Shown here piece by piece: positions 11,190 to 35,257 of a stretch of 64,000 nt of DNA; the first letter of the stretch is position 1; every line of letters begins with the position of its first letter. The notes below the pieces were generated by a model that saw only the letters and a list, made by a program, of their open reading frames with translations, searched no databases and had not been told where the DNA came from. The stretch comes from Candidatus Nomurabacteria bacterium (GTDB lineage Bacteria > Patescibacteriota > Minisyncoccia > Phycocordibacterales > UBA918), in NCBI GenBank assembly GCA_020632155.1, contig JACKGE010000001.1, forward strand, positions 381,302-445,301. Direction: 5' to 3'. The position numbers and the translations under genes were made by a program.

Positions 11190-11279
11190 GCTCGGGGGAG
11201 CTTTTTGCACAGGGTGGCGAAATAAGATGTCTCTGGTATGCTGTACCCTAATCTTATTGGTAGCAAACATCATTAACGT

Positions 11280-14973: not shown

Positions 14974-15186
14974 ATGCCAGCAAAAAAGAAAGCTGCCAAG
15001 AAGACAGCGCGCAAGTCTACTAAGAAGACAGTTCGCAAGGCTGCTAAGAAGACCGCAAAGCGCGCACCTAAGAAGGCTGCGAAGAAGACAACCAAGCGTA
15101 AGGCTGCGAAGAAGACTGCTAAAAAAGCAGCAAAGCGCAAGCCAGCTAAGAAAGCTGCCAAGAAGGCTGTACGTCGCAAGAAGTAA
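14974..15186 (+). CDS. histone H1-like lysine/alanine-rich DNA-binding protein (Hc1/AlgP-repeat-like)
   Basis: 70 aa, MPAKKKAAKKTARKSTKKTVRKAAKK... composed almost entirely of AAKK/TAKK repeats. Followed by a rho-independent terminator. The antisense ORFs are artefacts of the repeat. Confidence 0.75.
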   Translation: MPAKKKAAKKTARKSTKKTVRKAAKKTAKRAPKKAAKKTTKRKAAKKTAKKAAKRKPAKKAAKKAVRRKK

Positions 15187-15208
15187 ATTCCTTACTTCAT
15201 TCGACACA

Positions 15209-15240
15209 CAAAACCCGCTCTCCACAGCGGTGTTTTGTTT
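15209..15240 (+). terminator. rho-independent terminator after histone-like gene
   Basis: AAAACCCGCTCtccacAGCGGTGTTTTGTTT: GC stem plus U-run. Confidence 0.6.
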
Positions 15241-15278
15241 GTCTGAGCAGGCGCTTTAGCTCGGTTTCTTTCTGTGGT

Positions 15279-17804: not shown

Positions 17805-17838
17805 TTACCATTGACGTTTAAATAAAAACGCGTACTCT

Positions 17839-18183
17839 TTGTACATGATAAAAATGATCTCACGAGTTCTCATCGGAGCTCTTGCGCTACTATTGGCAGC
17901 TAATTTTATCCCTGGTATTGAGGTTATGGGCCTCTACACAGCGATCATTGCTGCTCTTATTTTAGGACTCCTCAATATGATTGTGCGTCCCGTACTTATT
18001 GTCCTTACATTGCCAGTGACTATTTTGACGTTGGGTTTGTTTACCTTTGTTATTAATGCAGCCCTCTTTTGGTTCGCAGCTTCGTTCATTGAGGGTTTTG
18101 CTGTAGCGGGATTTGTGCCAGCACTCCTCGGTTCAATTTTTGTATCTATAGTCAGTGCCATTGGTAACGCACTCATATCATGA
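17839..18183 (+). CDS. small 4-TM membrane protein, phage-holin-4_2 / DUF360-like
   Basis: 114 aa and highly hydrophobic. Pattern ...NFIPGIEVMG...IIAALILGLLNMIVRPVLIVLTLPVTILTLGLFTFVINAALFW... resembles the DUF360 family. Confidence 0.5.
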   Translation: MYMIKMISRVLIGALALLLAANFIPGIEVMGLYTAIIAALILGLLNMIVRPVLIVLTLPVTILTLGLFTFVINAALFWFAASFIEGFAVAGFVPALLGSIFVSIVSAIGNALIS

Positions 18184-18815
18184 TGCAGACGATCGCCAAA
18201 CTCCTGCCGGCGATTGGTTTTGTTCTAGTGTGTACGCTACTCTTGCTCTTCACTGAGCCGGTTGCCTATATGAAGACACTTGTCTCAGGTATGAACGCGG
18301 TGAGCTACATTAGCTATGTACTCATGCTCACTTTGGCAATCGTACTCATGCCACTTACGGTAATGCCACTTATACCAGTGGCCTCTGCAGTAATGGGCCC
18401 GTTTGCAACAGCACTCCTTAGTATCGTTGGGTGGACCCTCGGTGGGGTATTGGCGTTTTTGATCGCCCGCTATGTTGGCCGTCCAGCCCTCGAACGTTTT
18501 GTAAACCTAGGTACACTCGACGAGCTCACTGCTCGTATACCACAAAATAGTCGCTTTATGGTTATTGTGTTGCTGCGCCTCACACTGCCAGTCGATATTG
18601 TTAGTTACGCCATTGGATTTACATCAAGCGTCAGTCTACTTGAATACACATTGGCTACGTTAGTCGGAGTCACTTGGTTTTCATTTGCGTTTGCGTACCT
18701 TGGTGACGCCCTTCTTACGGGGAACAAACCACTGCTCATAGAACTAACAGGCGCATCGCTGCTCATCTTTTTTGGTGCGTGGTTGTGGCTTAGGCGTACA
18801 CACCGTCGGAACTAG
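18180..18815 (+). CDS. TVP38/TMEM64 (DedA/SNARE-associated) family membrane protein
   Basis: LIARYVGRPALERFVN...RLTLPVDIVSYAIGFTSSVSLLEYTLATLVG matches the conserved DedA core. Length 211 aa. Confidence 0.6.
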   Translation: MMQTIAKLLPAIGFVLVCTLLLLFTEPVAYMKTLVSGMNAVSYISYVLMLTLAIVLMPLTVMPLIPVASAVMGPFATALLSIVGWTLGGVLAFLIARYVGRPALERFVNLGTLDELTARIPQNSRFMVIVLLRLTLPVDIVSYAIGFTSSVSLLEYTLATLVGVTWFSFAFAYLGDALLTGNKPLLIELTGASLLIFFGAWLWLRRTHRRN

Positions 18816-18856
18816 GTTGCTTAGTTTTATGGCCGTGGTAGGCTAGGAACTCACAT

Positions 18857-19825
18857 ATGTTTGTTGATGAAATACGTATAAAAGCCAAGGCTGGAGACGG
18901 TGGTATTGGCGTTGTTCGCTGGCGACATGAGAAATTTAAGCCTAAAGCCGGCCCTGCTGGTGGCAATGGCGGCAATGGAGGTAGTGTCTATTTGCGGGCT
19001 GTCAAAGACCTTGGGTTGTTGTCAAAGTATACCGGTGCCAAAGAGTTTCGTGCTGAAAGCGGTGAAGCTGGCCGTGCTCTTAGCCAGTACGGAAAAAACG
19101 GTGAAGACCTGTATATTGATATTCCGGTTGGATCAAAAGTGACCGACGAAGAGCGAGGTTTTAGCTATGAGCTGACCACCGAAGGAGAGACTGCACGCAT
19201 CCTTAAAGGTGGTCGCGGCGGACTTGGTAATGAATACTTCAAGTCATCAACCAATCGTTCACCGGAAGAATCCACAGAAGGAACCCTTGGGGAGGAAGGA
19301 AGCTTTTTTATTGAGCTCAGTTTGGTTGTCGATGTTGGACTTGTTGGAAAACCAAACGCTGGTAAATCCACACTCCTTAATACACTTACCAATGCTCGTT
19401 CGACAATTGGTTCGTATCCTTTCACAACGCTTGAGCCCCACCTTGGGGCACTCTACGAGTTTACTATCGCTGACATACCGGGGCTTATTGAAGGGGCTGC
19501 AGAAGGGAAGGGGCTTGGCCATAAGTTTTTGCGACATATATCACGCACCAAAATGCTCCTCCACCTCGTTTCACTTGAAGAAGATGATCCAAAAAATGTG
19601 TATTATACAATTTCTAAAGAGCTATCTAACTACTCAAAAAGTATATCTGATAAAGAAGAGTGGATTATTTTAACTAAAAAAGACCTTGTTTCAAAAGACA
19701 TTATAGAGGCAACTTGCAAATCTATTGACAAAATTAACAAACGTGTGTTTGTAGTGTCTGCAGAAAGCGGGGAAGGGATAAAAGAACTGCAAGATTCTCT
19801 TGTTTTGCACTTACGGGAAGGGTAG
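18857..19825 (+). CDS. obg: GTPase Obg/CgtA
   Basis: MFVDEIRIKAKAGDGGIGVVRWRHEKFKPKAGPAGGNGGNGGSVYL (Obg fold glycine-rich N-domain). G-domain motifs GKPNAGKST and DIPGLIEGA. Confidence 0.9.
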   Translation: MFVDEIRIKAKAGDGGIGVVRWRHEKFKPKAGPAGGNGGNGGSVYLRAVKDLGLLSKYTGAKEFRAESGEAGRALSQYGKNGEDLYIDIPVGSKVTDEERGFSYELTTEGETARILKGGRGGLGNEYFKSSTNRSPEESTEGTLGEEGSFFIELSLVVDVGLVGKPNAGKSTLLNTLTNARSTIGSYPFTTLEPHLGALYEFTIADIPGLIEGAAEGKGLGHKFLRHISRTKMLLHLVSLEEDDPKNVYYTISKELSNYSKSISDKEEWIILTKKDLVSKDIIEATCKSIDKINKRVFVVSAESGEGIKELQDSLVLHLREG

Positions 19826-19835
19826 TATAGGGGCC

Positions 19836-21248
19836 ATGAGTACGTATACACCCACCATTGGTATCGAAGTTCACGCTGAACTCAATACAAAAAGTAAGAT
19901 GTTTTGTTCATGTGTGAACGATCCGCATGCAGCTGAAGCCAACACACACATTTGTCCAGTCTGTTTAGCACACCCCGGAACCCTTCCAGCGGTAAATAAA
20001 GAAGCAGTCAAAAAGGTTCTGCTTGTTGGCAAGGCACTTGGCGGCACGCTTGCTGTCTATAGTGAGTTTGATCGTAAAAATTATTTCTATCCGGATATTC
20101 CAAAAGCGTATCAGCTCAGTCAGTATGCGTACCCATTTGTCTCAGGGGGTGAACTGGCCGGAGTGGCAATTACTCGTGTGCACCTCGAAGAGGATACCGC
20201 GCGCAGTCAACATGAGATGGAGGGAAGCATCGTTGATTTTAATCGAGCCGGAGTACCACTTATGGAACTGGTTACGGAGCCAGTCATACATGACGCCAAG
20301 ACAGCTGCTACTTTTGCTAAAGAGCTACAGCTGCTTTTACGAACACTTGGTATTTCAGGAGCAAATATGGAAAGAGGGGAGATGCGGGTAGAGGCCAATA
20401 TATCTATTAGTGATACAGATGAGCTTGGCACTAAAGTTGAAGTTAAGAATTTGAACTCCTTTAAGGCGGTGGAGCAAGCAATAGAATACGAGATCAAGCG
20501 ACAAACGGAACTATTAAATAGTAACGAACGTATTATTCAAGAAACCCGCGGGTGGGACGAGAACAAAAGTCGCACATTTTCGCAACGTTCCAAGGAAACA
20601 GCTGAAGATTACCGATATTTCCCAGATCCAGACATTCCCAAGTACGACCTCAAAAAAGTGCCAGAATTTGAAAATTCTCGTCTACAGGAGATAATGCCTA
20701 AATTACCCCTAGAAATAAGGGAGCAATATCTCGGCTACGGTGTAAAAGGTGAACAAATCGAGATACTACTAGCTGATAAGCAGCTGCTCAACTTTATGGA
20801 CGCTGTAACAGCTGAAATGGCCTCGAATGACAAGAAAGTGCGGCAAGCAGTAAATTACGTAACATCTGACGTTGTGGGATTGTTACAAGATTCGTCTGAA
20901 CTAACATTAGAGCTGAGCTCCGCCAGTTCATTTGCATCGCTTATCACCCTTCTTGATAGTGGTGAAATAAATTCACGCGTAGCAAAAGATCTTCTCGCTG
21001 AGGTATTGCGTCATGGAAGTGATCCAAAGCAATTAGCCGAAGAAAAGGGCTTATTGCAGGCAAGTTCTACTGATGAGCTACTGCCGATCGTGACCACTGT
21101 AATAGCAGAAAATCCAGAGGTAGTTAGCGAATACAAAGGAGGGAAGGAGGCCGTACTCCAGTTCTTGGTTGGACAGGGTATGAAGGCCACCCGAGGGAGC
21201 GCCAACCCAGCTGTTCTTACTGAACTCCTTAAGGAGCAAATGAAATAG
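19836..21248 (+). CDS. gatB: Asp-tRNA(Asn)/Glu-tRNA(Gln) amidotransferase subunit B
   Basis: TIGIEVHAELNTKSKMFCSCVNDPH...ICPVCLAHPGTLPAVNKEAV is the canonical GatB N-terminus. ATG at 19836 is preferred over the upstream in-frame M. Confidence 0.9.
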   Translation: MSTYTPTIGIEVHAELNTKSKMFCSCVNDPHAAEANTHICPVCLAHPGTLPAVNKEAVKKVLLVGKALGGTLAVYSEFDRKNYFYPDIPKAYQLSQYAYPFVSGGELAGVAITRVHLEEDTARSQHEMEGSIVDFNRAGVPLMELVTEPVIHDAKTAATFAKELQLLLRTLGISGANMERGEMRVEANISISDTDELGTKVEVKNLNSFKAVEQAIEYEIKRQTELLNSNERIIQETRGWDENKSRTFSQRSKETAEDYRYFPDPDIPKYDLKKVPEFENSRLQEIMPKLPLEIREQYLGYGVKGEQIEILLADKQLLNFMDAVTAEMASNDKKVRQAVNYVTSDVVGLLQDSSELTLELSSASSFASLITLLDSGEINSRVAKDLLAEVLRHGSDPKQLAEEKGLLQASSTDELLPIVTTVIAENPEVVSEYKGGKEAVLQFLVGQGMKATRGSANPAVLTELLKEQMK

Positions 21249-21263
21249 CGTTTGTGCTATACA

Positions 21264-21296
21264 AAAAACCGCGAGATATCCACTCGCGGTTTTTTG
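21264..21296 (+). terminator. rho-independent terminator after gatB
   Basis: AAAAAACCGCGAGatatccactCTCGCGGTTTTTTG. Confidence 0.8.
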
Positions 21297-21324
21297 TCAC
21301 CACCTGTATAATAGGGCACAGCAT

Positions 21325-22209
21325 ATGGAAACTATCTCGGTTAATGGAGAAACCTTTATAAAAGCCAACATTCTGGCCCGAGAACTCGGCTACACAGCAG
21401 ACTATGTTGGGCAGCTGTGTCGTGGTGGCAAAGTGAAAGCAGAGCTCGTGGGGCGAAGTTGGTTTGTAGAACCAGAATCCCTTCGGTCTCATCGTAAGGG
21501 TCGTTATCGAAGTGTAGCTAAGAAATCTAAGCTACAGATAGAAAAGCAAACTAAGACCACTGAGACAGTACCGGCCAAGGAAGGGTCAACTCACATACCG
21601 ATCAATAAGCATTTTTACAGTCGTGGTGTACAAAAGAATGTTCGGTATGAAATGGACGAAAGCGAATTGATGCCAGCAATCAAGCCCACTGACAAAGGAG
21701 AGTCTTCACGTTTGCAAGTACATTTGGCAGAAGCGCGGCAAATGAACATAAAAAGCACTGAAAAAGCCTATAAAATGGAAGCTACAGAGCTCCCAACATT
21801 TAAACGTGACGGCACCCTTACGATAGCGGAAGCTCCTGAACTTGCAGAGAATCCAGTATCAGAAGCAAAAAAAACGCCAAAAAAGGGTACGCACAAGAGC
21901 TCAGAAGCAAAATCGCGGCACGTAAACGTACATAGTAGTGATAGTGCGGAAGTGGTTCCTATTGCCACTGCAGTTAAAACACACAAAAAAAGGACCGTAA
22001 CAGCAAAGCGCAGGACAGCTCAAAAGGGCCATGGCCTTAGAGCGCTGTGGTGGGTGTTTGTGTGGGTGGCAGTCAGTGCTCTTGGGCTGATTATAGCTAC
22101 GCTTGAGTACCACACAAGCGTAGGCGGTAACGTTTCTGACAGTTATTCGTTTGAGCCAGAAAATATAAAAACAATTTTTGAAATAGCAAAAATGTACCTA
22201 AAAATATAG
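21325..22209 (+). CDS. membrane-tethered protein with N-terminal excisionase/MerR-like HTH (HTH_17-like), one TM segment and extracytoplasmic C-domain
   Basis: N-terminus ARELGYTADYVGQLCRGGKVKAELVGRSWFVEPESL. Single hydrophobic helix LRALWWVFVWVAVSALGLIIATL near the C-terminus. Paralog of 22575..23294. Confidence 0.55.
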   Translation: METISVNGETFIKANILARELGYTADYVGQLCRGGKVKAELVGRSWFVEPESLRSHRKGRYRSVAKKSKLQIEKQTKTTETVPAKEGSTHIPINKHFYSRGVQKNVRYEMDESELMPAIKPTDKGESSRLQVHLAEARQMNIKSTEKAYKMEATELPTFKRDGTLTIAEAPELAENPVSEAKKTPKKGTHKSSEAKSRHVNVHSSDSAEVVPIATAVKTHKKRTVTAKRRTAQKGHGLRALWWVFVWVAVSALGLIIATLEYHTSVGGNVSDSYSFEPENIKTIFEIAKMYLKI

Positions 22210-22574
22210 TTTTTTCGTGTAGCCGAGATTTATTTTGCCAAGCCTACATAGCTGGTTGTGTAAAAATACAGGCCTTGTTTGCCCTGATGGTGTGTAAGGG
22301 CTGATTGTTCCGGTTTGTAACTGTAAGGTCCTTATTTCTTGTCAGGGCTTTTTCTCTAAGTACAAGGGAGAGTAGGGTTGCTGGTTTCGGAGGCGGCGGC
22401 TCAGGCCTGTAGGCGGGTGCTGAACAGGTTGTACTTCACATAAAAAAGAAGTGGTCTTGATCGAGTAGAGGTCTCCCTGCTGCAGGACAAACAGGTGTTT
22501 TTTACTGTCCACATATGGAGCGTTTTTGAGCCAAAAAAAAGGCGAAATCACTATAAAATATATAGCAATATCGT

Positions 22575-23294
22575 ATGAGCTTCGATCCTTCACCACAGGC
22601 TAAATTCATACCCGTTAAAGAAGCCGCCAAACTGGTCGGCTACACGACCGACTACGTCGCTAAGTTGGCGCGGGAGGGAAAGGTCGATGCACGGCGCAAT
22701 GGTCGACAGTGGTTCGTTGGCCGCGACTCAGTGAAACTCTTTTCACTGCAGCAAGAGGAGCTCAAAAAAACTCGTCAACAAGAATTAAAAGAGCAGCGTC
22801 TTAGAGAGCGTCATGGTGAGGTGAGTACGGCATCGCCATCGGTAGCAAAAATCGAGAAACAAGAAAGTGGAGCGCATGAAGCGCTCGCGACTACGGCCGT
22901 GGTGTTTGCTTCAATCTGCATTATGACCGTCCTCTCACTTTCTGTAGTTGAAAATAAGATCTCGTTTTCAGACATAGGGGCGACGATTGCTGGACTTGCA
23001 GCACGCGTTGGTAGTGTCGCAAATGTTATAGACGGGACTGATTGGTGGCCGCCACAAGGACTCCATCAGGTTGCTCTTGATGGGGAGGCAGTTGGTGGCC
23101 TTAGAGACCTGCCACAGGTAGATAGCAATGAAGCCCGCATCTTGCTTCCGAACAATGAGAATGCTACGTCTGCCGCACGGTATTTTTCTGACGAGGTCAT
23201 GGTGAAGACCAGTGCGAATGGTGCGGTAATAACACCGGTCTTTCGCAGTGGTACTTCAGAACAGGCGTTTGTGATTGAGGATAGTACCGAGTGA
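22575..23294 (+). CDS. paralogous membrane-tethered HTH protein
   Basis: N-terminus AKLVGYTTDYVAKLAREGKVDARRNGRQWFVGRDSV (same motif as 21325 ORF). TM helix ALATTAVVFASICIMTVLSLSVV, then a ~110-aa C-terminal domain. Confidence 0.55.
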   Translation: MSFDPSPQAKFIPVKEAAKLVGYTTDYVAKLAREGKVDARRNGRQWFVGRDSVKLFSLQQEELKKTRQQELKEQRLRERHGEVSTASPSVAKIEKQESGAHEALATTAVVFASICIMTVLSLSVVENKISFSDIGATIAGLAARVGSVANVIDGTDWWPPQGLHQVALDGEAVGGLRDLPQVDSNEARILLPNNENATSAARYFSDEVMVKTSANGAVITPVFRSGTSEQAFVIEDSTE

Positions 23295-23304
23295 GTTTTT
23301 ACGT

Positions 23305-26010
23305 ATGAGCAAGCGTATCATTATCAACCGAATACTACACACAACTACACTTGGTCTTTTGCTCGTGCTTAGCCTTAGTCTCCTTAGCTCTCTTGCGGAG
23401 GCGGCGCCAAACTACCAGATCAACTATCAAGGTAAGCTCCTCGATAGTTCTGGCTCTCCGGTGGCAAATGGTTTATACGACATGGAGTTTAAGCTCTATA
23501 CCGTTCCTACCGGTGGCAGCGCCATTTGGACCGAAACACGCACTGGTGGTAATCAAGTGATGGCCACAAGCGGCCTGTTCTCAGTGATGCTCGGTGAAGT
23601 AGCCTCTCTCTCTGGAGTTGATTTTGATCAAACGCTCTACCTAGGAGTGAATATCGAGGGTGACGGTGAGATGTCACCGCGCAAAGTGCTTGGCTCCGTA
23701 CCGGCTGCATTTGAGGCGGCACACGCAGCTGATAGTGATACCGTGGGCGGTGTTGCTTCTTCCTCGTTCCTCAGAAGTGATGCAGCTGACACAGCTTCAG
23801 GCTTGCTGACATTCACTGGAGGACTTGTCAGTACAGCCTCTAGTACCATCACTGATCTTACGTTCACTACTGCTACTGCTACAACGCTCGTCATAAACGG
23901 CGAAGCCTTTACTGACTTTACGGGCACTGCACTTGTAAACACCGGTGGGGTACTCTCAGTTTCAACCTCGTCACTGGCAGTGTACTTTGCGTCGACGTCT
24001 GATTTTAATACCGAAGCAAAGTTGGAAAGTATTTTGACTGACGTCACCAACATATACACCAACAACGACGGTTCCCTCAGTGACGACGACCTCAGCAACA
24101 ACAGCACCACCGACCTCGCTGAAGGTACTAACCTCTATTTCACGACTGCTCGCGCTTCTACCACTGCAGCGCAAGTCCTCTTTGCTACCACAACCCTTCC
24201 AAACCTTACGACCTTAGCCAACCTTTCTACCGTTGGCACCATCACCTCCGGAACGTGGAACGGCACCGCCATCGGTGACGCCTACCTCACCAAGACTGGT
24301 GACTGGACCGGCACCTTCGACGGACAGGAGGGGAGTTACTATCTCAATGCCGACAATCTCACCAACCTCGATGCTAGTGATATTGCTCTTACCAACGGTT
24401 ACGTTCTGCGCGGTTCAGCAGGTGGCACCGCTGAGGCCACTAGCTCACTCTTTATTACTGACGCTGGAAATGTGGGGATTGGGACAACGACGCCAGATTA
24501 CCCACTTGAAGTGGTTGGCCGTACCGAACTCCACGGCATCACTGTTGTTGACGGCCGTTCTACCAGTGTTGATGGCCCTCACTTCACTGTTAGTGATGAT
24601 GCCAACCTGCCCCTGTTTGACATCTCGTCTTCCTTTGGCCAAACCTTTATCAACAGCAACAAGAATGCCCGCTTCTTTGACAGTGTCTACCTTGCTGACG
24701 AGCTCCAAGACGTCACTCAATCAGCTGGTTCCAATGGGTACATTCTACAGTCAACTGGTACCAGTACGCTGTGGACCGACCCTACTAGTCTTGGTTTCAT
24801 TGCTACTACCAGTGGCAACTGGACCGGCACCTTCGACGGACAGGAGGGGAGTTACTACCTAGACCTCGCCAATGCTACGGGTGATACTGACGACCTCACC
24901 GAAGGCAGCACCAACCTCTTCTCTCAGTGGGGCACCTCTGGCTCTAACGTCTACTACAACAGTGGAAATGTGGGGATTGGGACGACAAGTCCGCAGACCA
25001 CCTTGCATGTCTCAGACACCAGTGCAATTTTGCGACTTGACCCGACCGGAGCAAGTGGGGATGCTTCCATCCAATACTACGCTGACGCTGCTGCTCGCTG
25101 GTCAAGTGGTGTAGATAATGATGATAGCTACAAATACAAGATATCTACCGGATCTGCTCTTGGTAGTGGTGAGGCGCTGACTATTGATACCTCCGGCAAC
25201 ATTGGTATCGGAACCACAACACCAGATCAAATACTTACGGTTGCGGGTAACGCATATATAACGGGCGGAGCTACAACCAGCGACCTCTATGTTACCGATA
25301 CGTTCAGTGGGGCCGGTTTAACCGCTTGTAGTGGTTCTGCCTCTAAACTCCTGTGGAGCTCTACAACACAGCAATTTGTTTGTGGAGCTGACGCTGGCGC
25401 TGGCGGGGGTATCACCGCACTTGGTGTGGCTGGTTCGTACCAAAGCGGTTCTACGCAGACCCTTGCCACTTCCAGTGATACTAACCTAGAACTCACTATT
25501 GTCTCAAGCGGCGATACACATACATTTACACCGGTTTGGAACGGCACACTCGCTGTTGGACGTGGTGGTACCGGCGCAGGTTCTTTCAACGCTGGTGAAC
25601 TCCTCGTCGGCAACGGTACCGGCGCCCTTACCTCGACCACTACCGCTGGACTCAAAGCCACATTGGCGCTCGACAATGTAGAGAACACCGCGCTCTCGAC
25701 GTGGCTGGCTCAAGCAATATCACGACACTCGGCACGATTGGTACCGGCATCTGGAACGGCACTGCCATCGGTGACGCCTACCTCACCAAGACCGGCGACT
25801 GGACCGGCACCTTCGACGGACAGGAGGGGAGTTACTACCTCAACGCCGACAATCTCACCAACCTCGATGCTAGTGATATTGCTCTTACCAACGGCTACGT
25901 CCTTCGTGGTTCAGCTGCTAACACTGCCGAAGCTACCAGCTCGCTCTTTATTACTGACGCTGGAAATGTGGGGATTGGTACTACGACGCCAGATTACCCA
26001 CTTGAAGTAG
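23305..26010 (+). CDS. giant tail-fibre-like surface protein, 5' segment (signal peptide; reading frame is lost at ~25696 and the remaining ORF is out-of-frame translation)
   Basis: MSKRIIINRILHTTTLGLLLVLSLSLLSSLAEA signal peptide. Repeated GNVGIGTTTP and GTWNGTAIGDAYLTKTGDWTGTFDGQEGSYYL modules. After nt ~25696 the ORF translates the alternative frame of the repeat (…ISRHSARLVPASGTALPSVTPTSPRP…). Confidence 0.6.
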   Translation: MSKRIIINRILHTTTLGLLLVLSLSLLSSLAEAAPNYQINYQGKLLDSSGSPVANGLYDMEFKLYTVPTGGSAIWTETRTGGNQVMATSGLFSVMLGEVASLSGVDFDQTLYLGVNIEGDGEMSPRKVLGSVPAAFEAAHAADSDTVGGVASSSFLRSDAADTASGLLTFTGGLVSTASSTITDLTFTTATATTLVINGEAFTDFTGTALVNTGGVLSVSTSSLAVYFASTSDFNTEAKLESILTDVTNIYTNNDGSLSDDDLSNNSTTDLAEGTNLYFTTARASTTAAQVLFATTTLPNLTTLANLSTVGTITSGTWNGTAIGDAYLTKTGDWTGTFDGQEGSYYLNADNLTNLDASDIALTNGYVLRGSAGGTAEATSSLFITDAGNVGIGTTTPDYPLEVVGRTELHGITVVDGRSTSVDGPHFTVSDDANLPLFDISSSFGQTFINSNKNARFFDSVYLADELQDVTQSAGSNGYILQSTGTSTLWTDPTSLGFIATTSGNWTGTFDGQEGSYYLDLANATGDTDDLTEGSTNLFSQWGTSGSNVYYNSGNVGIGTTSPQTTLHVSDTSAILRLDPTGASGDASIQYYADAAARWSSGVDNDDSYKYKISTGSALGSGEALTIDTSGNIGIGTTTPDQILTVAGNAYITGGATTSDLYVTDTFSGAGLTACSGSASKLLWSSTTQQFVCGADAGAGGGITALGVAGSYQSGSTQTLATSSDTNLELTIVSSGDTHTFTPVWNGTLAVGRGGTGAGSFNAGELLVGNGTGALTSTTTAGLKATLALDNVENTALSTWLAQAISRHSARLVPASGTALPSVTPTSPRPATGPAPSTDRRGVTTSTPTISPTSMLVILLLPTATSFVVQLLTLPKLPARSLLLTLEMWGLVLRRQITHLK
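24241..24775 (+). repeat. ~530-bp near-identical intragenic direct repeat, copy 1
   Basis: Near-identical to 25746..26275 (encodes TWNGTAIGDAYLTKTGDWTGTFDGQEGSYYLNADNLTNLDASDIALTNGYVLRGSA...GNVGIGTTTPDYPLEVVGRTELHGITVVDGRSTSVDGPHFTVSDDANLPLFDISSSFGQTFINSNKNARFFDSVYLADELQDVTQSAGS). Confidence 0.8.
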
Positions 26011-28553
26011 TTGGCCGCACCGAACTCCACGGCATCACTGTTGTTGACGGTCGTTCTACCAGTGTTGATGGCCCTCACTTCACTGTTAGTGATGATGCCA
26101 ACCTGCCCCTGTTTGACATCTCGTCTTCCTTTGGCCAAACCTTTATCAACAGCAACAAGAATGCCCGCTTCTTTGACAGTGTCTACCTTGCTGACGAGCT
26201 CCAAGACGTCACTCAGTCGGCCGGTTCTGCTGGCTACGTGCTTCAATCTACCGGTACTAGTACGCTGTGGGTCGCAACAAGCAGTCTCGGAATCAGCGCT
26301 GGTGGCGGTGGTACGGTGAGTAGCGTTGCAGCGAGTGTCCCGACTGGTTGGACAGTGACTGGTAGTCCGATAACTGCTACAGGAACTCTTGCGTTTGACT
26401 ACGACACCGGCTACGGCGCCGTCCTTATAGCCAGTACCACTGACTGGCAAACCGCCTACAGTTGGGGCAACCATGCCGCTGCCGGCTATCTCGACGGTAC
26501 TGACATCGGTTCAACCGTCCAAGGCTACAATGCCAACACCACCATCCTCGGTTCTACCATTAATGCTAACGAACTAGCGAGCGAAGACTTCGGTGACTTC
26601 ACCTGCAATGGCACAACGTGCTCCCTTGATGCTGACACCGTGGCGGCCTCTGAAATGGCCGACAGTGATCACGGCTTCTTCTCATACAGCTCCGGAGTAG
26701 CATCTCTCGACACCGATGGCCTCACTAGTGCCAACCTGTCTGGTGCGCTCACTAATGAGACTGGTACTGGAAGTGTCGTGTTCTCAAGTTCACCGACTCT
26801 CACCACACCAGATCTTGGTACTCCAAGTGCAATTACTCTAACCAATGCTACCGGCCTCCCGCTCTCAACTGGCGTCACTGGCACGCTTGATATCGCCAAC
26901 GGTGGTCTTGGCATCTCATACACCGATCCAAATGCTGATCGCATTCTCTTCTGGGATGATAGTGCTGGTAGATTTTGCCAACCTGACAGCTTCAACCGGA
27001 CTCACCCTTACTGGCACTAACCTCACTGTCCGTAGTGCCTCAGAATCTCAGACTGGTATTGCCGAGTTTGCTACTCAAACCGAGGTCAATACCGGAACCG
27101 ATACTACGCGTGTGGTACGCGCCAATACCCTTGGTGCGTGGCCTGGCACCACCAACCTCACCACCCTCGGCACCATCACTACCGGAACGTGGAACGGCAC
27201 CGCCATCGGTGACGCCTACCTCACCAAGACTGGTGACTGGACCGGCACCTTCGACGGACAGGAGGGGAGTTACTACCTAGACCTCGCCAATGCTACGGGT
27301 GATACTGACGACCTCACCGAAGGCAGCACCAACCTCTTCTCTGATGGACCACCTCTGGCTCTGATATTTGCAGTGGAAGTGTTGGAATTGGTATTGACGA
27401 GTCCATTCAGCACAACCACTAAAACGCTCACCGTTGATGCTGGAGGGGTTCATCTGGCAATATGCCGGCCTTGAACTACGTGGTGGCAAATGGTAATTTG
27501 CTGGAAATAGTGAAATTGGTTTTTTGCTGGAGAGGACGCTTACGAGCACTCGCGTATGAGCTGATGTAACGGGTGGCGGGATCTTGGTTGGAAATCGGCC
27601 TTTATACCAACCAGAATTCTGCAGCGAATCTCACAGAACGAATGCGCGTTAACTATCTTGGTAACGTCGGCATCCGGGACGACAGGTCCGTGAAGCTTGA
27701 CGTGGTTGGGAATATCCGTGCATATACTACTACAAGTAATAACGGCCTTATTATTTCATCAGGAAGTACCAATACTGGTGCTCGAAACTGGTTCGTTGGC
27801 GCAAACACTCCTGTGGCTTATGGTGATTTTGCTCTGCAGCAGTCAAATGCACTGGGTGGTGATCCACGCACTGCTGGTACGGCACGGTTGTATACGCTCC
27901 TCCGGGTCGGCATCACCACCACTCCATCAGAACTCCTGCATGCGCCTGGCGATGCCCGTATAGAAGGACGCTTTATGACAGCACTTCACCAAGCGGTGCT
28001 CTCGGCTACGTCCTCCAAACTACCGGCACGGAGAGTACCATGGTGGCGATCAAGTCTTGGCCGTGAACACCAACACAATTAACTGTGAAAGCGGGTAGAG
28101 GTTATATATTTGATGGCAGCAACAGTGGCACGCTCTCTTCTGGAACTTGGCACTTTGATTCACTTACAGATGATACAGTTAGATGATACATATAACACCC
28201 TCGGCATATCTCGACAGTACTGTAGCAGATGGCGCTCTTTCAATGCCAACGTCTCACTCTACTCGGCAGCGCTATAGACCCACTGGATCTTGCAGACGAT
28301 GATTTCGGAGACTTTTCTTGCTCCAGTGGTATCTCTGTACCTTTGATAACGACACCATCGCTCCAGCCGAGATGGCTGATGCTGACACGGCTTCTTCTCA
28401 TACAGCTGGAGGGTAGCTTCGCTTGACAGGTGGCCTTACCAGTGCAAACCTCGCATCTGCCCTCACTAATGAAACTGGTGGCAGTGCGGTGTTTCAGCTT
28501 CGCCAACTCTCACTACCTAACCTCCAGTACACCAAGCGCTGTCACATTAACTA
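25697..28553 (+). pseudogene. frameshift-riddled, degenerate paralogous segments of the giant surface-protein gene (or assembly errors in a collapsed repeat)
   Basis: Homolog-guided comparison shows 1-nt indels at ~25696 (tggcctggc -> tggctggc), ~26962 (aacttt -> agatttt), and ~27345-27474 (premature stop). Fragments 27573..28082 and 28229..28768 still encode recognisable modules (GNVGI, DLADDDFGDFSCSSG, TNATGLPISTG) but in shifting frames. Confidence 0.5.
25746..26275 (+). repeat. ~530-bp intragenic direct repeat, copy 2
   Basis: See copy 1. Only scattered synonymous or conservative differences between the two copies. Confidence 0.8.
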
Positions 28554-31500
28554 ATGCAACTGGTCTCCCAATTAGCACTGGCCTTAGTGGTGCTGGAACC
28601 GGCGTCCTTACTGCTCTTGGTGTTAACATCAGGTTCCTTTGTGGTCAATGGTGGCGCTCTTGGCACCCCATCCTCAGGTACTCTCTGCAACGACTGGCTT
28701 ACCACTCTCTACCGGGTGACTGGCACACTTGGTATTGCCAATGGCGGTCTTGGTGTCTCATACACTGATCCAAATGCAGACCGTATCTTATTCTGGGACG
28801 ATAGTGCTGGCAACTTCGCTAACCTTGTCGCCTCAACTGGTCTTACTTTGTCGGGCACCAACCTAACGGTCCGAGCTGCTTCAGAATCACAAACTGGTAT
28901 TGCTCCGCAAAGGAGTTTGCTACTCAAACCGAGGTCAATACCGGAACCGATACTACGCGTGTGGTACGCGCCAATACCCCTCGGTGCGTGGCTGGTCACC
29001 AACCTCACCACCCTCGGCACCATCACTACCGGAACGTGGAACGGCACCGCCATCGGTGACGCCTACCTCACCAAGACTGGTGACTGGACCGGCACCTTCG
29101 ACGGACAGGAGGGGAGTTACTACCTAGACCTCGCCAATGCTACGGGTGATACTGACGACCTCACCGAAGGCACAACCAACCTCTTCTCCCAGTGGACCAC
29201 CTCCGGCTCTGATATCTACTACAACAGTGGAAATGTTGGTATTGGGACGACGACGCCGGACCAGCCCCTGGTCGTCCTTGGTGGTACTGCAAGTACAGCA
29301 CCAAACCTACTCACTATCCAGTCAAATGAAGGTGGTAGCACCAGTCCGGGCGATGTGTACGCCGGTATTCAGTTTGGTGTATATGGGGGAGAGAATGGCA
29401 GTGGTGCACAGCCAGTAACCGCCTTTATCAAAGCGGTTGATACGAGAGCTGGCGCTACTTCAAATGAAGACGGGGGACTTTCTTTTGGAACCCTGAATTC
29501 CACCGGCGGTCCGACAGAACGGATGATTATTACTCACGATGGTAAGGTCGGTATTGGCACCTCTGATCCGTCTGACACTCTCAATGTTGCTGGTAACACC
29601 GACATTACCGGTGAAGTGCAGATTGATGGAACATTGTCTATCGGTGGCGTCGCGCCGAACAGTTCACGCAGTCTCTATATAAATGACTCATTCACTGATG
29701 ATGCAGCTACGTACGGCATATATAACCTAACCAACTTCGGCTCCTCCATAAGTGGAAACCGTACACCATATAGTAGTTTCAATAAACTTACGGTCGACGG
29801 GTATACCTTAAATTCTAATACTCTTAACCCAGCGGGTGTGTATGGCGAAGTCGAGATATTAAATGGCAATGAAGATGTTGGTAGCGCCCGTGGATTATAC
29901 TCGGTTGTAGATAACCAAAATACCAGTGGTACATTGGACGCTAGTTACGCCATTGATGTACTTACCCAAACTTCGGCTAATTCTACTACTACCAACGCGT
30001 ATGCGTTTAGAAGCAATTTAACCAATAACGGCTACATCGGTAACTACTACGGTATTTATCTCACGGATGTAGTAGAGGGAGGGCAGGGCAATGCCTACGC
30101 GTTCTGGACCAATGAAGGAGACGTTGTTCTTGACGGCGACGGCGACGGTGTTGCAGGTGGTACCGATGTTGGCACCAACCTTTTCTTTGGCGAAAGTCAA
30201 GATGCAGCAATTTGGTATGACGGCGCCGATTTTAACATTGATCCGCAAATCGTTGGTTCAGGTGATCTGCTCATACCAAACGGCAACGTTGGTATTGGTG
30301 ACCCGACACCTTCATCTAAACTTGATGTGTACGAAAATAGTACCAATGCCGCTGGTGCGAGTGGACTTACACTAGAACAAGCTGGTACTGGTGATGTAAA
30401 CATTTCATTCCTACTGACGGGTACACGACGTTGGAATGTTGGTGTCGACAACAGTGATAGTGATAGGTTCAAAATCCTCTCCGACAATAGCAATGATTAC
30501 AGTGGTTCAGGACTGGTGATTAACACGAATGGTAATGTCGGCATCGGCGCAGCCGACCCCTCTGTGGCTAAACTGCAAACGTACGTGAATGATACAAGCT
30601 CGTACCAAAATCTCATTGAGCAGGACAGTACTGGTGACTCGGCACTCTCGTTCCTTTTAACAGGCACTAAACAATGGATCGTTGGTATTGATAATAGCGA
30701 CGGTGACAAGTTCAAGATCGGCGAAGGAGGTGCTGTTGATTCTGAAACCGCACTAACCATTGATACGTCTAGTAATGTTGGTATTGGTATCACTGACCCA
30801 AGCACCTACTTACAAATTACCCGAGCATCAAACGCGTGGCCAGCGACTTCGGGAACCACTCAAAGTACTGGCCAATATATGCGCCTCGGAAACAATACTG
30901 GTTCTGTTCTTGATATCGGTGGCAACAGTACCTCAGGCCAGTGGCTACAATCCACAAACGCCACCAATCTTGCCACCAATTATCCGCTACTCCTAAATCC
31001 AAATGGTGGCAACGTCGGTATCGGTGATTCCTCTCCAGCCAGTCTATTCACCGTCGGTAACGGCGACCTGTTCCAAGTAAACTCCTCTGGTGACATTATC
31101 ACGCAGTCTGTTGGTGTCGATGCACTGGAGAGCGAAGACTTCGGTGACTTCACTTGCAATGGCACGACGTGTACTCTCGACGCTACCTATCTGACGGGCA
31201 ACCAAACCATCACCCTTTCTGGAGACGTCTCTGGTTCTGGTGCTACCAGCATCAGCACCACTCTGGCGGCTGACACCGTTGATTATTCAAATATCGATTA
31301 CTCAGCAGTCATTGGTAGCGACCCATCATTTGGAGCTAGTGAGACCTTCTTTGGCACTACCGGTGTCATCTTTGAAGGATCGTCTGCTGATACATTTGAA
31401 GGGCTCCTTACCACCACCAATATTACCGGTTCAGATAAGACATGGACATTGCCAAATACCACCGGCACCATCGCGCTCCTAACGAGTGCTATGACCGGTA

Positions 31501-34500
31501 CTTTTGACGGCAACAACTTCGGCGGGGGAGCAATTGGTGCCGGTGACCTTCTCTACGGTTCAGCTGCCGGTACCATTTCAGAACTTTCTGGCGCCGCGAC
31601 GGGCAACGTGCTCCTTTCCGGTGGTGCAACTGGGGCCCCAAGCTGGGGCAAGGTTTCTGCCACAGCACTCAGCGCCGCTGACTTCGGTGACTTCACCTGC
31701 AACGGCACCACCTGTACACTCGACGATACCTACTTAGCAAACGGAGACCACTGGACCCTCACCGGTGACCCGTACCTCTATTACACAGGAGGGAATGTGG
31801 GTATTGGTACGTCGTCTCCAACCAATCTTCTCTATATAAACGGCGGTAACATCGGTACCTCGACGGCAACGGTTGTTATTGATGACGGCCTCGGTTCGCT
31901 TGGTTTGACGCCGCCAACTCCATATAACGCTTCCCTTAAACTCTATAACGGTATTGGTGATAACTCTGTAGTACTCCGCTCGATGTCTGATTCCAGTGGT
32001 TCTAATAATGGGGAGAATACCGCCGAATTGGCATTTACCAGCTTGAGTGAAGCGTCCGTTGGTACAACTGACTCCGCACCGTTCTACCTCAAGACCAACA
32101 ATACCTCACGTCTCTATATTGACTCCTCCGGCAACGTTGGTATCGGTACCACGAGTCCACAACGATTATTGCACTTGAGTACGATTGGTCAGGCAACGGG
32201 TGCGGTAGCACGTATGGAGGCACCAACTGGATATGACACTAAATTTGAATTTTGGGAAGATGGAGTTGAATTGTGGGAATTTGGTGCTGATACAAGCGCA
32301 GATCTGTTTGCGATTGGACCGACCGTTAATACAGCGGATTTTGTCATCGACTCCTCCGGCAACGTCGGTATTGGTACTACAAGCCCAAGTACGTTACTCC
32401 AGATTGGAGACGGTACGAATGATGCTATCCAAACATTCACCGATGGCCTCGGCTCACTACAAGCTACTATTGATTTTCAAACCTCCGGAACAGGAGCCCC
32501 ATCTAATCCAGATGGATGGAAGTTGCGTTTGTACGGGCAGAGTACTTATGATGCAGCTGATTATGGTATCGGCATCAACGGCAATACACTCTGGTTTAAT
32601 ACAGGCGGTACAAACATAGATTTCTATGACAGTGGTAGTCAGATTGCAACCTTCCAAAACGGTAATTTTGGAATTGGCGACACCTCACCTGCCGCACTTC
32701 TCACTGTCGGCAATGGAGATCTCTTCCAAGTGAACTCCTCCGGTGTTGTTACGGCCGGTACGTGGCAGGGAACAGCACTTACAGACGCCTATGTAAGTGA
32801 TACCCTAACAGCATCAACATGGCAGGGGTATACCATTAGCGGCGGTGATGACCTTGATACCGTCTCAGTACCAACCGGCCGTAAGGTAACAATTGGCGGT
32901 TATGCAGGTGTGTCACCAACCAATACTCCAAACTCAGAACAGTATGGTGCTCTTATTACTGCTCACGATGGTTCACAGCAAAATCAGCTTTGGTTTGGTG
33001 GTACAACCTCCGGCGATATTTATGTACGTCGGCGCGATAGTGGTACTTACTACGCGTGGACTCGCTTCTGGAATGATGCGAACGATGGCTCTGGCAGTGG
33101 CCTTGATGCCGATACCCTTGACGGCGTCGACTCCTCTGCTTTTAGTCAACTCGGTGCTTTCATTGATCCAGTTGATCTCGCTGACGATGACTTCGGTGAC
33201 TTCACTTGTACGACCGGTTTCTGTTTCCTTGATAACGATGTGGTAGCAGCGGCGGAAATGGCTAATGGTGACCACGGCTTCTTCTCATACAGTGGTGGTG
33301 TCGCTTCGCTTGATACCGGAGGTCTTACTTCTGCCAACCTTATTAGTGCACTCACTAACGAGACCGGTTCCGGCAGCGCAGTCTTCTCTGCGTCACCAAC
33401 TTTCACAGGTACGGTAAACGCCGCTGCCGCCACACTTTCAAGCACTCTCACTCTTTCCGGCACTGCCGCCAATATAGCGCTTGGCTCCAACTACCTCTCT
33501 GGTGATGGTGGTGACGAAGGCATTGCAATTGACTCAAGCGGTAATGTGACACTAACTGGCGATCTAACCGGAACTACCGACACCAAATTGGCCCTTACAC
33601 ATGCTGGTAACGAAACCGGATTCTCCTTCATACAGACCAATGTGCTCTCTGGCGAACAGGATGTCTTTGTGATCGAGGACCAAGATGGCGGCGGCGGCGG
33701 ACAAGACGAAAGCTCGGTTTTAAAAGTCATCAAGTCTGGTGCTTGGAACAGTGCGGATGATGGCTCATCGCTTATAGAGTTACTCTACAGCGGTGGTGGT
33801 AGCTTAAACCCTGACCAGCAGTTCTATATCACCGGTCGGACCACCGACGAAGGTGCTCTGACATGGGGTGTATCACAAACGGATGCTGACATCTGGAGCA
33901 CCGGTTCCTTGCGGCTTGGCGCAACAGGTGTTGATTGTTCTGGTACCAACGCACCATGTTTCAATTCACCAAGCATCGCCTTTGAAACCTCCGGAAATTC
34001 GTATATCAATACCGGTGGAAACTTTGGTATCGGCACAACGACGCCAAGCGCACTTCTCCATATTGACGCCAGTGCTGCTGCTGGTTCTGCCTTTAGGATC
34101 AGTACCACCTCAGCCACTTTCTTTGACGTCGATGCAGTGACGGGTGTTTCTACCTTTGGTGACTCAAGTGGTACTGGTGATGCGGTATTCCAGTTTGCTA
34201 ATGATGCTAATGCATGGGCCGTCGGGTATAAAGCGGCAGACCTATCATTTAACATCGCTTCGGGTACTGACCTTACCGGTACCATTGCATTATCTATAGC
34301 TAAAAGCGGTAATGTAACTATCGTTGGCTCGGCAGTGACTTGTGTACTCGGTAATGGTTCGAGCGCTACCAGCTGTTCATCATCTGATGAGCGACTCAAG
34401 GACGAGATCACTACCTTAAGTGGTACGAGCACTCTTGAACAACTGCGCAGACTTCGCCCAGTCTCATTCTTCTGGAACGATTGGATGCAGGAGAACGGTT

Positions 34501-35249
34501 CTACTGACGGTATCCAGTACGGACTCATCGCTCAAGAAGTAAAGGAGGTGTTCCCGTCGCTGGTGATGCGCGACCCAAACACAAACTACTACCGTCTTGA
34601 CTACCAAAACCTCATATCACCAACCATCAGTGCGGTACTTGAGCTCGACATGAATCTGGAGAGCTTGGCATCGAGCACAATGCCACTTCTTGATGAACGT
34701 GATGAGGAGACCTTTGCTGGCCGCTTCTTTGCTCGTTTGGTGACATGGCTCGGTGACACCGCCAATGGCATCGGCGACCTCTTTGCTGATCGAGTGCGTA
34801 CCAAGGAGATATGCGTTGAAAAAGCCAATGGTAGTGCCGTCTGTGTTAATGGAGATGAACTGGAGTCACTCCTTAATGGCCAAAGTACCGGCGGTAGTGG
34901 GGGAAGCGGAAATGTTGGCGGTGGTTCGACCGCTGGCGGCAACACACCACCTTCGGACGACCCTGTCGATGATACAACCGGCACCAGTACCGATGACGGC
35001 AGTACCTCGGGTGACACTACAGATGGAACCACAGGTACATCAACTGATTCGGGTACTGGTGATGGTGAAACTACAGACGGTGGTGATTCTATTCCTGATC
35101 AAACTGACACTATTGAGGGAGATAGTGGTAGCCAAGGTGATGGTACGGATGCTTCGAACGATCAATCAGGTGATAACAACACCACGGATGCTACTGATAC
35201 TGATTCGAATGGAGCGGAGGAGCCGGATAACACATCCACTGGCGGTTAA
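28554..35249 (+). CDS. giant tail-fibre-like surface protein, 3' segment (2231 codons), ending in an intramolecular-chaperone / peptidase S74-like autoprocessing domain and an acidic T/D/G-rich tail
   Basis: Dozens of GNVGIG(T/D)(T/S)SP beta-repeat units. Recurring DFGDFTCNGTTCTLD cysteine-pair modules. Near the C-terminus CSSS-DERLKDEITTL...YGLIAQEVKEVFPSLVMRDPNTNYYRLDYQNLISPTISAVLEL matches the S-D autocleavage and chaperone consensus of phage tail-spike/fibre C-terminal domains. The ATG at 28554 is not a credible start: the first ~60 codons are out-of-frame relative to homologous copies. The gene is most likely continuous with 23305. Confidence 0.7.
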   Translation: MQLVSQLALALVVLEPASLLLLVLTSGSFVVNGGALGTPSSGTLCNDWLTTLYRVTGTLGIANGGLGVSYTDPNADRILFWDDSAGNFANLVASTGLTLSGTNLTVRAASESQTGIAPQRSLLLKPRSIPEPILRVWYAPIPLGAWLVTNLTTLGTITTGTWNGTAIGDAYLTKTGDWTGTFDGQEGSYYLDLANATGDTDDLTEGTTNLFSQWTTSGSDIYYNSGNVGIGTTTPDQPLVVLGGTASTAPNLLTIQSNEGGSTSPGDVYAGIQFGVYGGENGSGAQPVTAFIKAVDTRAGATSNEDGGLSFGTLNSTGGPTERMIITHDGKVGIGTSDPSDTLNVAGNTDITGEVQIDGTLSIGGVAPNSSRSLYINDSFTDDAATYGIYNLTNFGSSISGNRTPYSSFNKLTVDGYTLNSNTLNPAGVYGEVEILNGNEDVGSARGLYSVVDNQNTSGTLDASYAIDVLTQTSANSTTTNAYAFRSNLTNNGYIGNYYGIYLTDVVEGGQGNAYAFWTNEGDVVLDGDGDGVAGGTDVGTNLFFGESQDAAIWYDGADFNIDPQIVGSGDLLIPNGNVGIGDPTPSSKLDVYENSTNAAGASGLTLEQAGTGDVNISFLLTGTRRWNVGVDNSDSDRFKILSDNSNDYSGSGLVINTNGNVGIGAADPSVAKLQTYVNDTSSYQNLIEQDSTGDSALSFLLTGTKQWIVGIDNSDGDKFKIGEGGAVDSETALTIDTSSNVGIGITDPSTYLQITRASNAWPATSGTTQSTGQYMRLGNNTGSVLDIGGNSTSGQWLQSTNATNLATNYPLLLNPNGGNVGIGDSSPASLFTVGNGDLFQVNSSGDIITQSVGVDALESEDFGDFTCNGTTCTLDATYLTGNQTITLSGDVSGSGATSISTTLAADTVDYSNIDYSAVIGSDPSFGASETFFGTTGVIFEGSSADTFEGLLTTTNITGSDKTWTLPNTTGTIALLTSAMTGTFDGNNFGGGAIGAGDLLYGSAAGTISELSGAATGNVLLSGGATGAPSWGKVSATALSAADFGDFTCNGTTCTLDDTYLANGDHWTLTGDPYLYYTGGNVGIGTSSPTNLLYINGGNIGTSTATVVIDDGLGSLGLTPPTPYNASLKLYNGIGDNSVVLRSMSDSSGSNNGENTAELAFTSLSEASVGTTDSAPFYLKTNNTSRLYIDSSGNVGIGTTSPQRLLHLSTIGQATGAVARMEAPTGYDTKFEFWEDGVELWEFGADTSADLFAIGPTVNTADFVIDSSGNVGIGTTSPSTLLQIGDGTNDAIQTFTDGLGSLQATIDFQTSGTGAPSNPDGWKLRLYGQSTYDAADYGIGINGNTLWFNTGGTNIDFYDSGSQIATFQNGNFGIGDTSPAALLTVGNGDLFQVNSSGVVTAGTWQGTALTDAYVSDTLTASTWQGYTISGGDDLDTVSVPTGRKVTIGGYAGVSPTNTPNSEQYGALITAHDGSQQNQLWFGGTTSGDIYVRRRDSGTYYAWTRFWNDANDGSGSGLDADTLDGVDSSAFSQLGAFIDPVDLADDDFGDFTCTTGFCFLDNDVVAAAEMANGDHGFFSYSGGVASLDTGGLTSANLISALTNETGSGSAVFSASPTFTGTVNAAAATLSSTLTLSGTAANIALGSNYLSGDGGDEGIAIDSSGNVTLTGDLTGTTDTKLALTHAGNETGFSFIQTNVLSGEQDVFVIEDQDGGGGGQDESSVLKVIKSGAWNSADDGSSLIELLYSGGGSLNPDQQFYITGRTTDEGALTWGVSQTDADIWSTGSLRLGATGVDCSGTNAPCFNSPSIAFETSGNSYINTGGNFGIGTTTPSALLHIDASAAAGSAFRISTTSATFFDVDAVTGVSTFGDSSGTGDAVFQFANDANAWAVGYKAADLSFNIASGTDLTGTIALSIAKSGNVTIVGSAVTCVLGNGSSATSCSSSDERLKDEITTLSGTSTLEQLRRLRPVSFFWNDWMQENGSTDGIQYGLIAQEVKEVFPSLVMRDPNTNYYRLDYQNLISPTISAVLELDMNLESLASSTMPLLDERDEETFAGRFFARLVTWLGDTANGIGDLFADRVRTKEICVEKANGSAVCVNGDELESLLNGQSTGGSGGSGNVGGGSTAGGNTPPSDDPVDDTTGTSTDDGSTSGDTTDGTTGTSTDSGTGDGETTDGGDSIPDQTDTIEGDSGSQGDGTDASNDQSGDNNTTDATDTDSNGAEEPDNTSTGG

Positions 35250-35257
35250 CATTGTGT

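Follow-up and report, generated by a model that had tools for sequence, protein, structure and literature searches.

The stretch of DNA considered here, referred to as the window, comprises 64,000 nucleotides (nt) of a contig from a Candidatus Nomurabacteria bacterium (JACKGE010000001.1, assembly GCA_020632155.1). Its central element is a giant gene whose middle part is crossed by a cluster of frameshifts. The gene and all of the parts described below lie on the forward (+) strand. Taken as a single conceptual unit, the gene extends from 23275 to 35249 (about 3,990 codons), an extent based on the map of open reading frames (ORFs), the path of the reading frame, identities with NCBI records and positional orthologues. 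It opens with a signal-peptide-like N-terminus (MSKRIIINRILHTTTLGLLLVLSLSLLSSLAEA) and continues with repeated tail-fibre-like modules, in which motifs such as GNVGIGTTTP and GDWTGTFDGQEGSYYL occur. The C-terminal part carries a Peptidase_S74 domain, the intramolecular chaperone of endosialidase and tail fibres, at 34383–34565, followed by an acidic low-complexity tail. In a Pfam scan, this domain (PF13884; amino acids (aa) 1944–2004) was matched with E=2.8e-14 and 53.6 bits, well above the gathering cut-off of 22. The Ser...Lys pair of the family is present in SSDERLKDE, around the motif SDERLK. This pair is presumably catalytic, as in the endosialidases. The product is probably a secreted tail-fibre-like giant surface protein with a self-cleaving C-terminal S74 chaperone domain.

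In the deposit, the gene is split into several coding sequences (CDSs), from MCB9811704.1 to MCB9811708.1. The ORF at 23305–26010 is identical, out-of-frame tail included, to MCB9811704.1 (H6783_02225, Candidatus Nomurabacteria bacterium), and the ORF at 28554–35249 is identical to MCB9811708.1, a “tail fiber domain-containing protein” of 2,231 aa. An earlier, sequence-only reading of the window had described at least six frameshifts in the repetitive middle of the gene, between an intact 5' part of 2.4 kb and an intact 3' part of 6.5 kb. The cluster itself was confirmed, but the count was too low: Viterbi decoding gives 18 frame switches, and alignment adds about four. Both flanks are clean as described, except that the intact 3' part begins at 28997 and not at the ATG at 28554; the start of that ORF (28554–28626) is out-of-frame read-through of a module rather than a real N-terminus.

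Frame switches were located with a Viterbi decoder that used a codon-usage model trained on the intact parts of the giant gene and a penalty for each change of frame, training and test regions being kept separate (cross-validated). It placed 18 switches in 25400–29400 and none in 8.1 kb of intact flanks (2.3 + 2.9 + 2.9 kb). The short pairs 28386/28427 and 28692/28718 were missed by the decoder and became visible when the sequence was aligned to its paralogues. Because at least two short pairs are overlooked in this way, the true number of switches is about 22. The coding path follows frame 1 (position modulo 3 equal to 1) through the intact 5' part (23305–25695), frame 0 between 25701 and about 26969, then frame 1 again between 26971 and 27342. 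Short pieces in all three frames follow, until frame 0 resumes in the intact 3' part (28997–35249). Neither intact part contains a Viterbi switch. The frame-0 segment at 25701–26969, which was delimited in a tblastn frame map, is copy 2 of a 196-aa module and is 91% identical to 24217–24800.

All of the individual sites proposed earlier could be found again, sometimes with a corrected position. The first, suspected near 25696, is a 1-nt deletion at 25696–25702 (GGG to GG), where the internal repeat region begins; the window has GTGGCTGGC where its paralogue at 27139 has TGGCCTGGC. The second, expected near 26962, is one extra base at 26970–26971, about 8 nt away, where alignment of two paralogous copies (A and B, defined below) sets GCT GGT A GAT TTT against GCT GGC AAC TTC in copy B. 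The indel around 27345 lies at 27343–27344, the premature stop at 27472–27474, and the stretch 27475–28553 is indeed readable as recognisable modules in three frames. A compensating pair of +8 and −2 had been described at 28905–28990. There are indels here, but they resolve into four, namely +8 (28904–28911), +1 (28977), −1 (28991) and −2 (28995). They occupy 28904–28996, in DNA that is otherwise about 99% identical to copy A, and as a result 25 codons are read out of frame, with PQRSLLLKPRSIPEPILRVWYAPIP in place of EFATQTEVNTGTDTTRVVRANT. Another compensated pair (−2, then −1), recognised from the A/B alignment and the translation, lies at 28692–28718, inside the 2,231-aa ORF that had been taken as intact; NDWLTTLYR stands there where NATGLPLSTG is expected. 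The indels that could be scored against paralogues are mostly deletions of 1–2 nt. The first three sites had been called 1-nt homopolymer indels. These indels are present in the deposited sequence, but the sites do not lie at long homopolymers: no run of at least 5 nt was found at any switch site, and the only such run in 25600–29100, T6 at 27520, is not a switch site.

Two of the Viterbi switches, at 25.70 and 26.97 kb, are isolated. The other 16 (27346, 27396, 27442, 27495, 27593, 27966, 28037, 28081, 28178, 28203, 28252, 28334, 28492, 28625, 28902 and 28976) fall in an error-dense zone at 27343–28996. These 1,654 nt hold at least 16 frame switches and the 2–3 in-frame stops that occur on the repaired path of the gene. 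A 192-nt repeat marks both edges of the zone exactly: one copy lies at 27150–27341 on the left and the other, 99% identical, at 28997–29188 on the right. Within the copies lies an exact repeat of 176 nt (27150–27325 = 28997–29172), longer than the largest SPAdes k-mer. The probability that at least 16 of 18 switches would fall by chance in 1,654 of 11,975 nt is 2e-12. At the rate of the zone, about 60 switches would be expected in the 6.25 kb on its 3' side; none was observed.

The repeats of the gene also share a feature of their own. A 41-nt core, GACTGGACCGGCACCTTCGACGGACAGGAGGGGAGTTACTA, which encodes DWTGTFDGQEGSYY, occurs in five module copies (24301–24341, 24817–24857, 25797–25837, 27235–27275 and 29082–29122). 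It is identical in all of them except for a single mismatch in one copy, and the flanks are only about 70% alike. The core is present in a short-read contig of the same species (L001, introduced below) and in none of the 86 other loci compared, and this restriction to the sequences of one species suggests that it has been homogenised within the genome.

The paralogous copies inside the gene also allow the action of selection to be followed across the frameshifts. Copy A (26860–27345) and copy B (28700–29190) differ by about 13% in their older part, and nearly all the differences lie three bases, or a multiple of three, apart. Precisely at the 26970 indel, this periodicity moves by one position. 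As the periodicity follows the shift, the frame under selection must have continued across the site without a break. In the final 280 nt, where the two copies are about 99% identical, there are 4 substitutions and 4 indel events. On this comparison, a ratio of about 1:1 between indels and substitutions is attributed to consensus error and not to mutation. A tandem duplication of these copies with a period of 1,847 nt was considered and dropped; the sequences that follow A and B are unrelated (28% aa identity). In a three-way comparison, two intact paralogues were aligned with the broken copy at 28250–28560. The broken copy has 30 substitutions of its own, distributed 11/3/16 over codon positions 1/2/3 (chi-square p=0.012). 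Changes at second positions are thus few, so coding constraint appears to be retained as in the intact copies, and stops have accumulated to no more than 2–3, although the sample is small. The same copy contains at least six indels in about 300 nt. Many indels next to no sign of neutral substitution are hard to reconcile with real decay.

In related genomes, the positional orthologues of the giant gene are uninterrupted ORFs of 3,000–5,300 aa. One is complete (4,105 aa in L049), and the others run off their loci (more than 4,432 aa in L012, 5,041 in L015, 3,686 in L029, 5,282 in L061 and 3,072 in L010). The reading frame in the window is therefore disrupted relative to intact orthologues. Contiguous matches of the relatives' proteins change frame within the dense zone. 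In L040, residues 1859–1891 match frame 2 at 28529–28627 and residues 1894–1915 match frame 0 at 28626–28691; L017 behaves alike. As these proteins are continuous across the switches, the zone is one coding region with frame errors and not a set of separate cassettes. The surroundings are conserved as well: the order SecA, 322-aa gene, GatB, 294-aa gene and giant gene (15279–23294 in the window) recurs in ten Paceibacteria genomes (L005, L007, L010, L011, L013, L015, L040, L043, L049 and L061). In L029 (HK-STAS-PATE-30), a single query segment matches the uninterrupted giant ORF (7175–18232) at residues 927, 1553, 2179 and 2805, which implies a tandem array of at least four copies with a period of 626 aa (1.9 kb). 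In five of the related Paceibacteria (L010, L015, L040, L043 and L049), the giant ORF opens with a helix-turn-helix (HTH) domain resembling HTH_17 and a transmembrane segment, fused in frame. In the window, this part is a separate ORF of 239 aa (22575–23294), which overlaps the start of the giant ORF (23275) by 20 nt. The split is reproduced exactly in the independent contigs L001–L003, and so it is a real gene fission.

Independent sequences of the same population bear on the frameshifts directly. At least 13 short-read contigs (L001–L004 and L081–L089), covering parts of 20391–43428 and 96–100% identical to the window, were retrieved through exact-protein look-ups of the neighbouring genes. 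They come from several sludge samples, in ENA assemblies of WANG18-1_SAMN083892xx and ERZ273093xx and in Logan assemblies of SRR12358675/6. The population is persistent and micro-diverse, with several co-existing strains that are 98.6–99.9% identical. All 13 contigs are at most 5.9 kb long, and those that enter the giant gene end within it, at 23327, 23353, 24148 and 25915. Only site 1, at 25700, is covered. The contig that crosses it, L001, was assembled with MEGAHIT and belongs to a different strain (99.3% identical). Up to 25691, it differs from the window at 5 of about 3,800 positions (99.87%) without a gap, and its differences within 25701–26969 affect the third positions of frame-0 codons. 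At site 1, the contig has TCT ACT TGG GCT GGC TCA (S T W A G S) where the window has TCG ACG TGG CTG GCT CA, that is, TGGGCTGGC or TCTACTTGGGCTGGCTCA (STWAGS, open) against TGGCTGGC or TCGACGTGGCTGGCTCA. With the extra G, the frame stays open into AGSSNITTLGT... The lesion was thus not reproduced at the only site covered by independent data. In the other regions, the independent contigs agree with the window at 98.6–100%. Over about 36 kb of aligned sequence (L001 up to 25691, L002, L003 and L081–L089), there are about 180 mismatches and no gaps. The more distant L004 has six indels, all of them in the intergenic spacer at 22210–22574. Natural variation in the coding DNA of this population is therefore substitutional.

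L001 departs abruptly from the window at 25692, at the point of the first frameshift. Its positions 3863–4031, the second copy of a 0.5-kb module, are 98.2% identical to copy 1 of the window (24256–24424) and only about 92% identical to copy 2 (25752–25920), which looks like strain-level gene conversion inside the giant gene.

Searches by protein, exact 32-mer and contig retrieved no independent contig that covers 25.9–29.0 kb. Protein searches with the repaired 879-aa middle returned, above 90% identity, only a paralogous piece from the same metagenome-assembled genome (MAG), and those with the unique 158-aa middle returned only its own ORF H6783_02240. The 169-aa middle ORF had no relative among genome contigs, and metagenome contigs held no match to the middle by protein or exact 32-mer. 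Exact look-ups of the products P0001 and P0122, the latter from the truncated ORF, gave no record, and P0122 was found in no other assembly. Absence from the protein database carries little weight, because the 872-aa product of L001 was not returned either; partial gene products at contig ends appear to be missing from it. The module at 27576–28051 has no relative sharing 5-residue words among 5.8 billion proteins beyond the MAG's own ORF, and none in two contig collections. Only matches of 30–50% identity exist, in related giant genes, and it may be a rare, strain-specific cassette.

The history of the contig provides a possible source of the errors. The source MAG, HK-STAS-PATE-26, consists of 5 contigs, the longest of 486,692 nt, with a GC content of 0.47992 (Liu et al. 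2021, PMC8518188, supplementary sheet S3). It was placed in the lineage Patescibacteria; Paceibacteria; UBA9983_A; UBA2163; OLB19 and had a relative abundance of 0.025% in an activated-sludge metagenome (PMC8518188). Its sister MAGs HK-STAS-PATE-30 and -31 carry the same NCBI name. The assembly pipeline combined Illumina and nanopore reads, the latter with a mean accuracy of 86.7%, through a Flye draft, binning and hybrid assembly with Unicycler v0.4.8 (PMC8518188). Unicycler fills dead ends of the short-read graph with raw long-read consensus (Wick et al. 2017, PMC5481147). The contig was thus made by an assembler that joins a short-read graph with bridges of error-prone long reads. The errors are limited to a patch bounded by repeats, the flanks are clean and the other genes are intact.

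Taken together, these results indicate, with a probability of roughly 0.8, that the frameshift cluster is an artefact of assembly or consensus, a property of the deposit and not of the organism; the underlying gene most likely forms one uninterrupted ORF of about 3,990 codons. Near-identical internal repeats, in a population of low abundance and with micro-diverse strains, would have left the short-read graph tangled or dead-ended at about 25.7–29.0 kb, and Unicycler would then have bridged this region with nanopore consensus. Short-read polishing with Pilon may have mended the stretches that reads could reach. It would have missed one stray error at 25.70 kb and another at 26.97 kb, and it would have left the stretch between the 192-nt copies (27343–28996) essentially without polishing, with about 1% residual errors, mostly deletions. 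Consensus errors in a collapsed repeat had been among the explanations offered by the sequence-only reading. Its consensus or assembly error is favoured here, but the origin is more likely an unpolished long-read bridge than a collapse.

Several points weigh against the explanation by assembly error. Only 1 of about 22 sites could be set against independent data, which came from another strain and another sample. To account for the isolated shifts at 25.70 and 26.97 kb, which are not within the dense zone, a longer and only partly polished bridge has to be assumed in addition. Homopolymer depletion was sought as a signature of nanopore consensus; the density of 3–6-nt runs in the zone equals that in the rest of the gene, which makes this test uninformative. 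Nor are the errors specific to homopolymers. The pattern typical of nanopore data is thus missing, but raw consensus of low coverage does not have to display it. In L015 and L029, two further MAGs made with this pipeline in the same study, the giant genes are clean, and such genes are therefore not always damaged by it. Within the dense zone, a stretch of 393 nt (27576–27968) is free of frameshifts. The codon-position test is based on only 30 substitutions. Finally, the absence of the 27576–28051 module elsewhere could mean that it is a rare strain-specific cassette, which would fit a scarcity of reads but is no proof of error.

Genuine recent pseudogenisation is the first alternative to be weighed, and it is unlikely. 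It would mean that the 25.70-kb frameshift truncated the protein, that the middle is now decaying and that the 2,231-aa 3' ORF survives or is expressed alone. Giant surface genes are often inactivated. The deposited sequence does contain indels and stops, the indels are biased towards deletions as in bacterial pseudogenes, and NCBI has accepted the pieces as CDSs. However, decay should extend over the whole 9.5 kb downstream of the truncation, whereas 16 of the 17 later switches crowd into 1.65 kb and the final 6.25 kb are free of them (P ~1e-11). The lineage-specific substitutions still avoid second codon positions, and only 2–3 stops have appeared. Near-identical DNA shows indels and substitutions at about 1:1, against 0 to about 180 in the natural variation between strains. 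The frame is open at site 1 in L001, and the supposed 3' ORF starts in out-of-frame module sequence. With its multiple, deletion-biased indels and its intact counterparts in relatives, the gene resembles known pseudogenes that decay by frameshift; it departs from them in the unrelaxed codon constraint, the extreme clustering, the 1:1 ratio and the untouched 6.25 kb.

It is also conceivable, with a low probability, that the indels are genuine and belong to a 1.65-kb strain-variable cassette between the 192-nt direct repeats. This cassette would have suffered a very recent burst, confined to one place, of 16 or more small indels, with its coding signature kept. If so, a local indel-prone process would be at work, or the cassette would be dispensable and carried by only a minority of the cells. 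An assembly artefact also agrees with a weaker version, in which the cassette is real but polymorphic in the population because the repeats allow its in-frame loss; reads would then have been too few for assembly or polishing.

The artefact could also have arisen differently, as a chimeric consensus of co-existing haplotypes or through mis-polishing by paralogous short reads, but this is similarly improbable. Strains that are 98.6–99.9% identical do co-occur, and L001 carries a different gene-conversion state of copy 2. The errors at 28904–28996 sit in DNA with a near-identical paralogue, and multi-mapping reads could mislead a polisher there. Most of the dense zone (27345–28620), however, has no close paralogue in the window, with just 28–60% aa identity, so mis-mapped paralogous reads cannot explain it. 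Haplotype mixing alone would yield substitutions and not deletion-biased indels of 1–2 nt.

Silent partial cassettes or homopolymer-linked on/off switching, also raised at the outset, or a programmed-frameshift system generating surface variation, can hardly be upheld: the gene is modular with internal repeats, the 41-nt core in five copies among them, and strain-level gene conversion is visible, but relatives hold the modules on both sides of the shifts in collinear order within single continuous proteins, the ORFs scanned next to the locus include no recombinase, invertase or reverse transcriptase, some 20 serial shifts could not be decoded by any recoding mechanism known to us, and the sites lack the homopolymer or simple-sequence tract (typically at least 7 nt) of phase-variable contingency loci, with no tract of even 5 nt and only GGG/GG at site 1, which rules out slipped-strand phase variation.

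A hybrid-assembly consensus error is an ordinary failure mode that is already understood. Watson and Warr reportedly described in 2019 how indel errors fragment genes in nanopore-based assemblies. As in such cases, frameshifts and premature stops split a gene here whose counterparts in relatives are intact. Nanopore errors of this sort are usually spread over the genome and linked to homopolymers, whereas here they are confined to 3.3 kb of the window and do not sit at long homopolymers; errors of this type are documented (PMC12007338, PMC9262707). The locus also resembles known Unicycler bridges of long reads (PMC5481147) in its assembler, its repeat-bounded and error-rich patch within an accurate contig, and its preponderance of indels. 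It differs from them in that its origin as a bridge is deduced and in that Pilon polishing would normally remove many such errors.

The remainder of the window is in good order. SecA, GatB, MurB, L25, GyrB and every other gene are intact. Directly after the giant gene, 3 nt past its stop, a gene at 35252–38239 encodes 995 aa with DUF2341, Laminin_G_3 and Gly_rich_2 domains, probably another surface protein of the same locus. Hidden frameshifts were considered at three overlapping ORF pairs (11280/13421, 40679/41308 and 50262/50794) and rejected, as these are different genes (Wzy_C/MurB, unknown/fn3 and L25/SLT, respectively). Recoding by genetic code 25 (UGA=Gly) was likewise dropped, since all other genes read correctly with table 11. 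An ORF-poor region of about 0.9 kb (61700–62620) lies upstream of the intact gyrB, which starts at 62628 and runs off the end of the window. It has no cluster of DnaA boxes, and the cumulative GC skew does not turn there.

The biological weight of the cluster is small, and its explanation removes an apparent candidate for a pseudogene or for phase variation. The hazard is of a more general kind. A hybrid, long-read-bridged MAG that is accurate over tens of kilobases may hold kilobase-sized patches of raw consensus in repetitive, strain-variable surface genes. In the annotation, one protein of about 3,990 aa is consequently replaced by a truncated “tail fiber domain-containing protein” and a number of “hypothetical proteins”. 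Studies of pseudogene load, gene fission and surface-protein repertoires in the Candidate Phyla Radiation (CPR) that use such assemblies should screen for consensus patches, and a codon-usage scan for frame switches finds them without reads. With its signal peptide, GNVGIGTTxP-type modules, SDERLK motif and position after SecA and GatB, the gene is otherwise like the giant S74-terminated surface proteins of the Patescibacteria (CPR), from which it differs in the separate 239-aa ORF for the HTH and transmembrane part and in the splitting of the deposited copy by errors. The tethering of a cytoplasmic DNA-binding domain to a giant surface protein may deserve attention of its own, and the locus in which HTH and transmembrane parts are joined to a giant ectodomain, together with its fission in this organism, may be biologically more interesting than the frameshifts.

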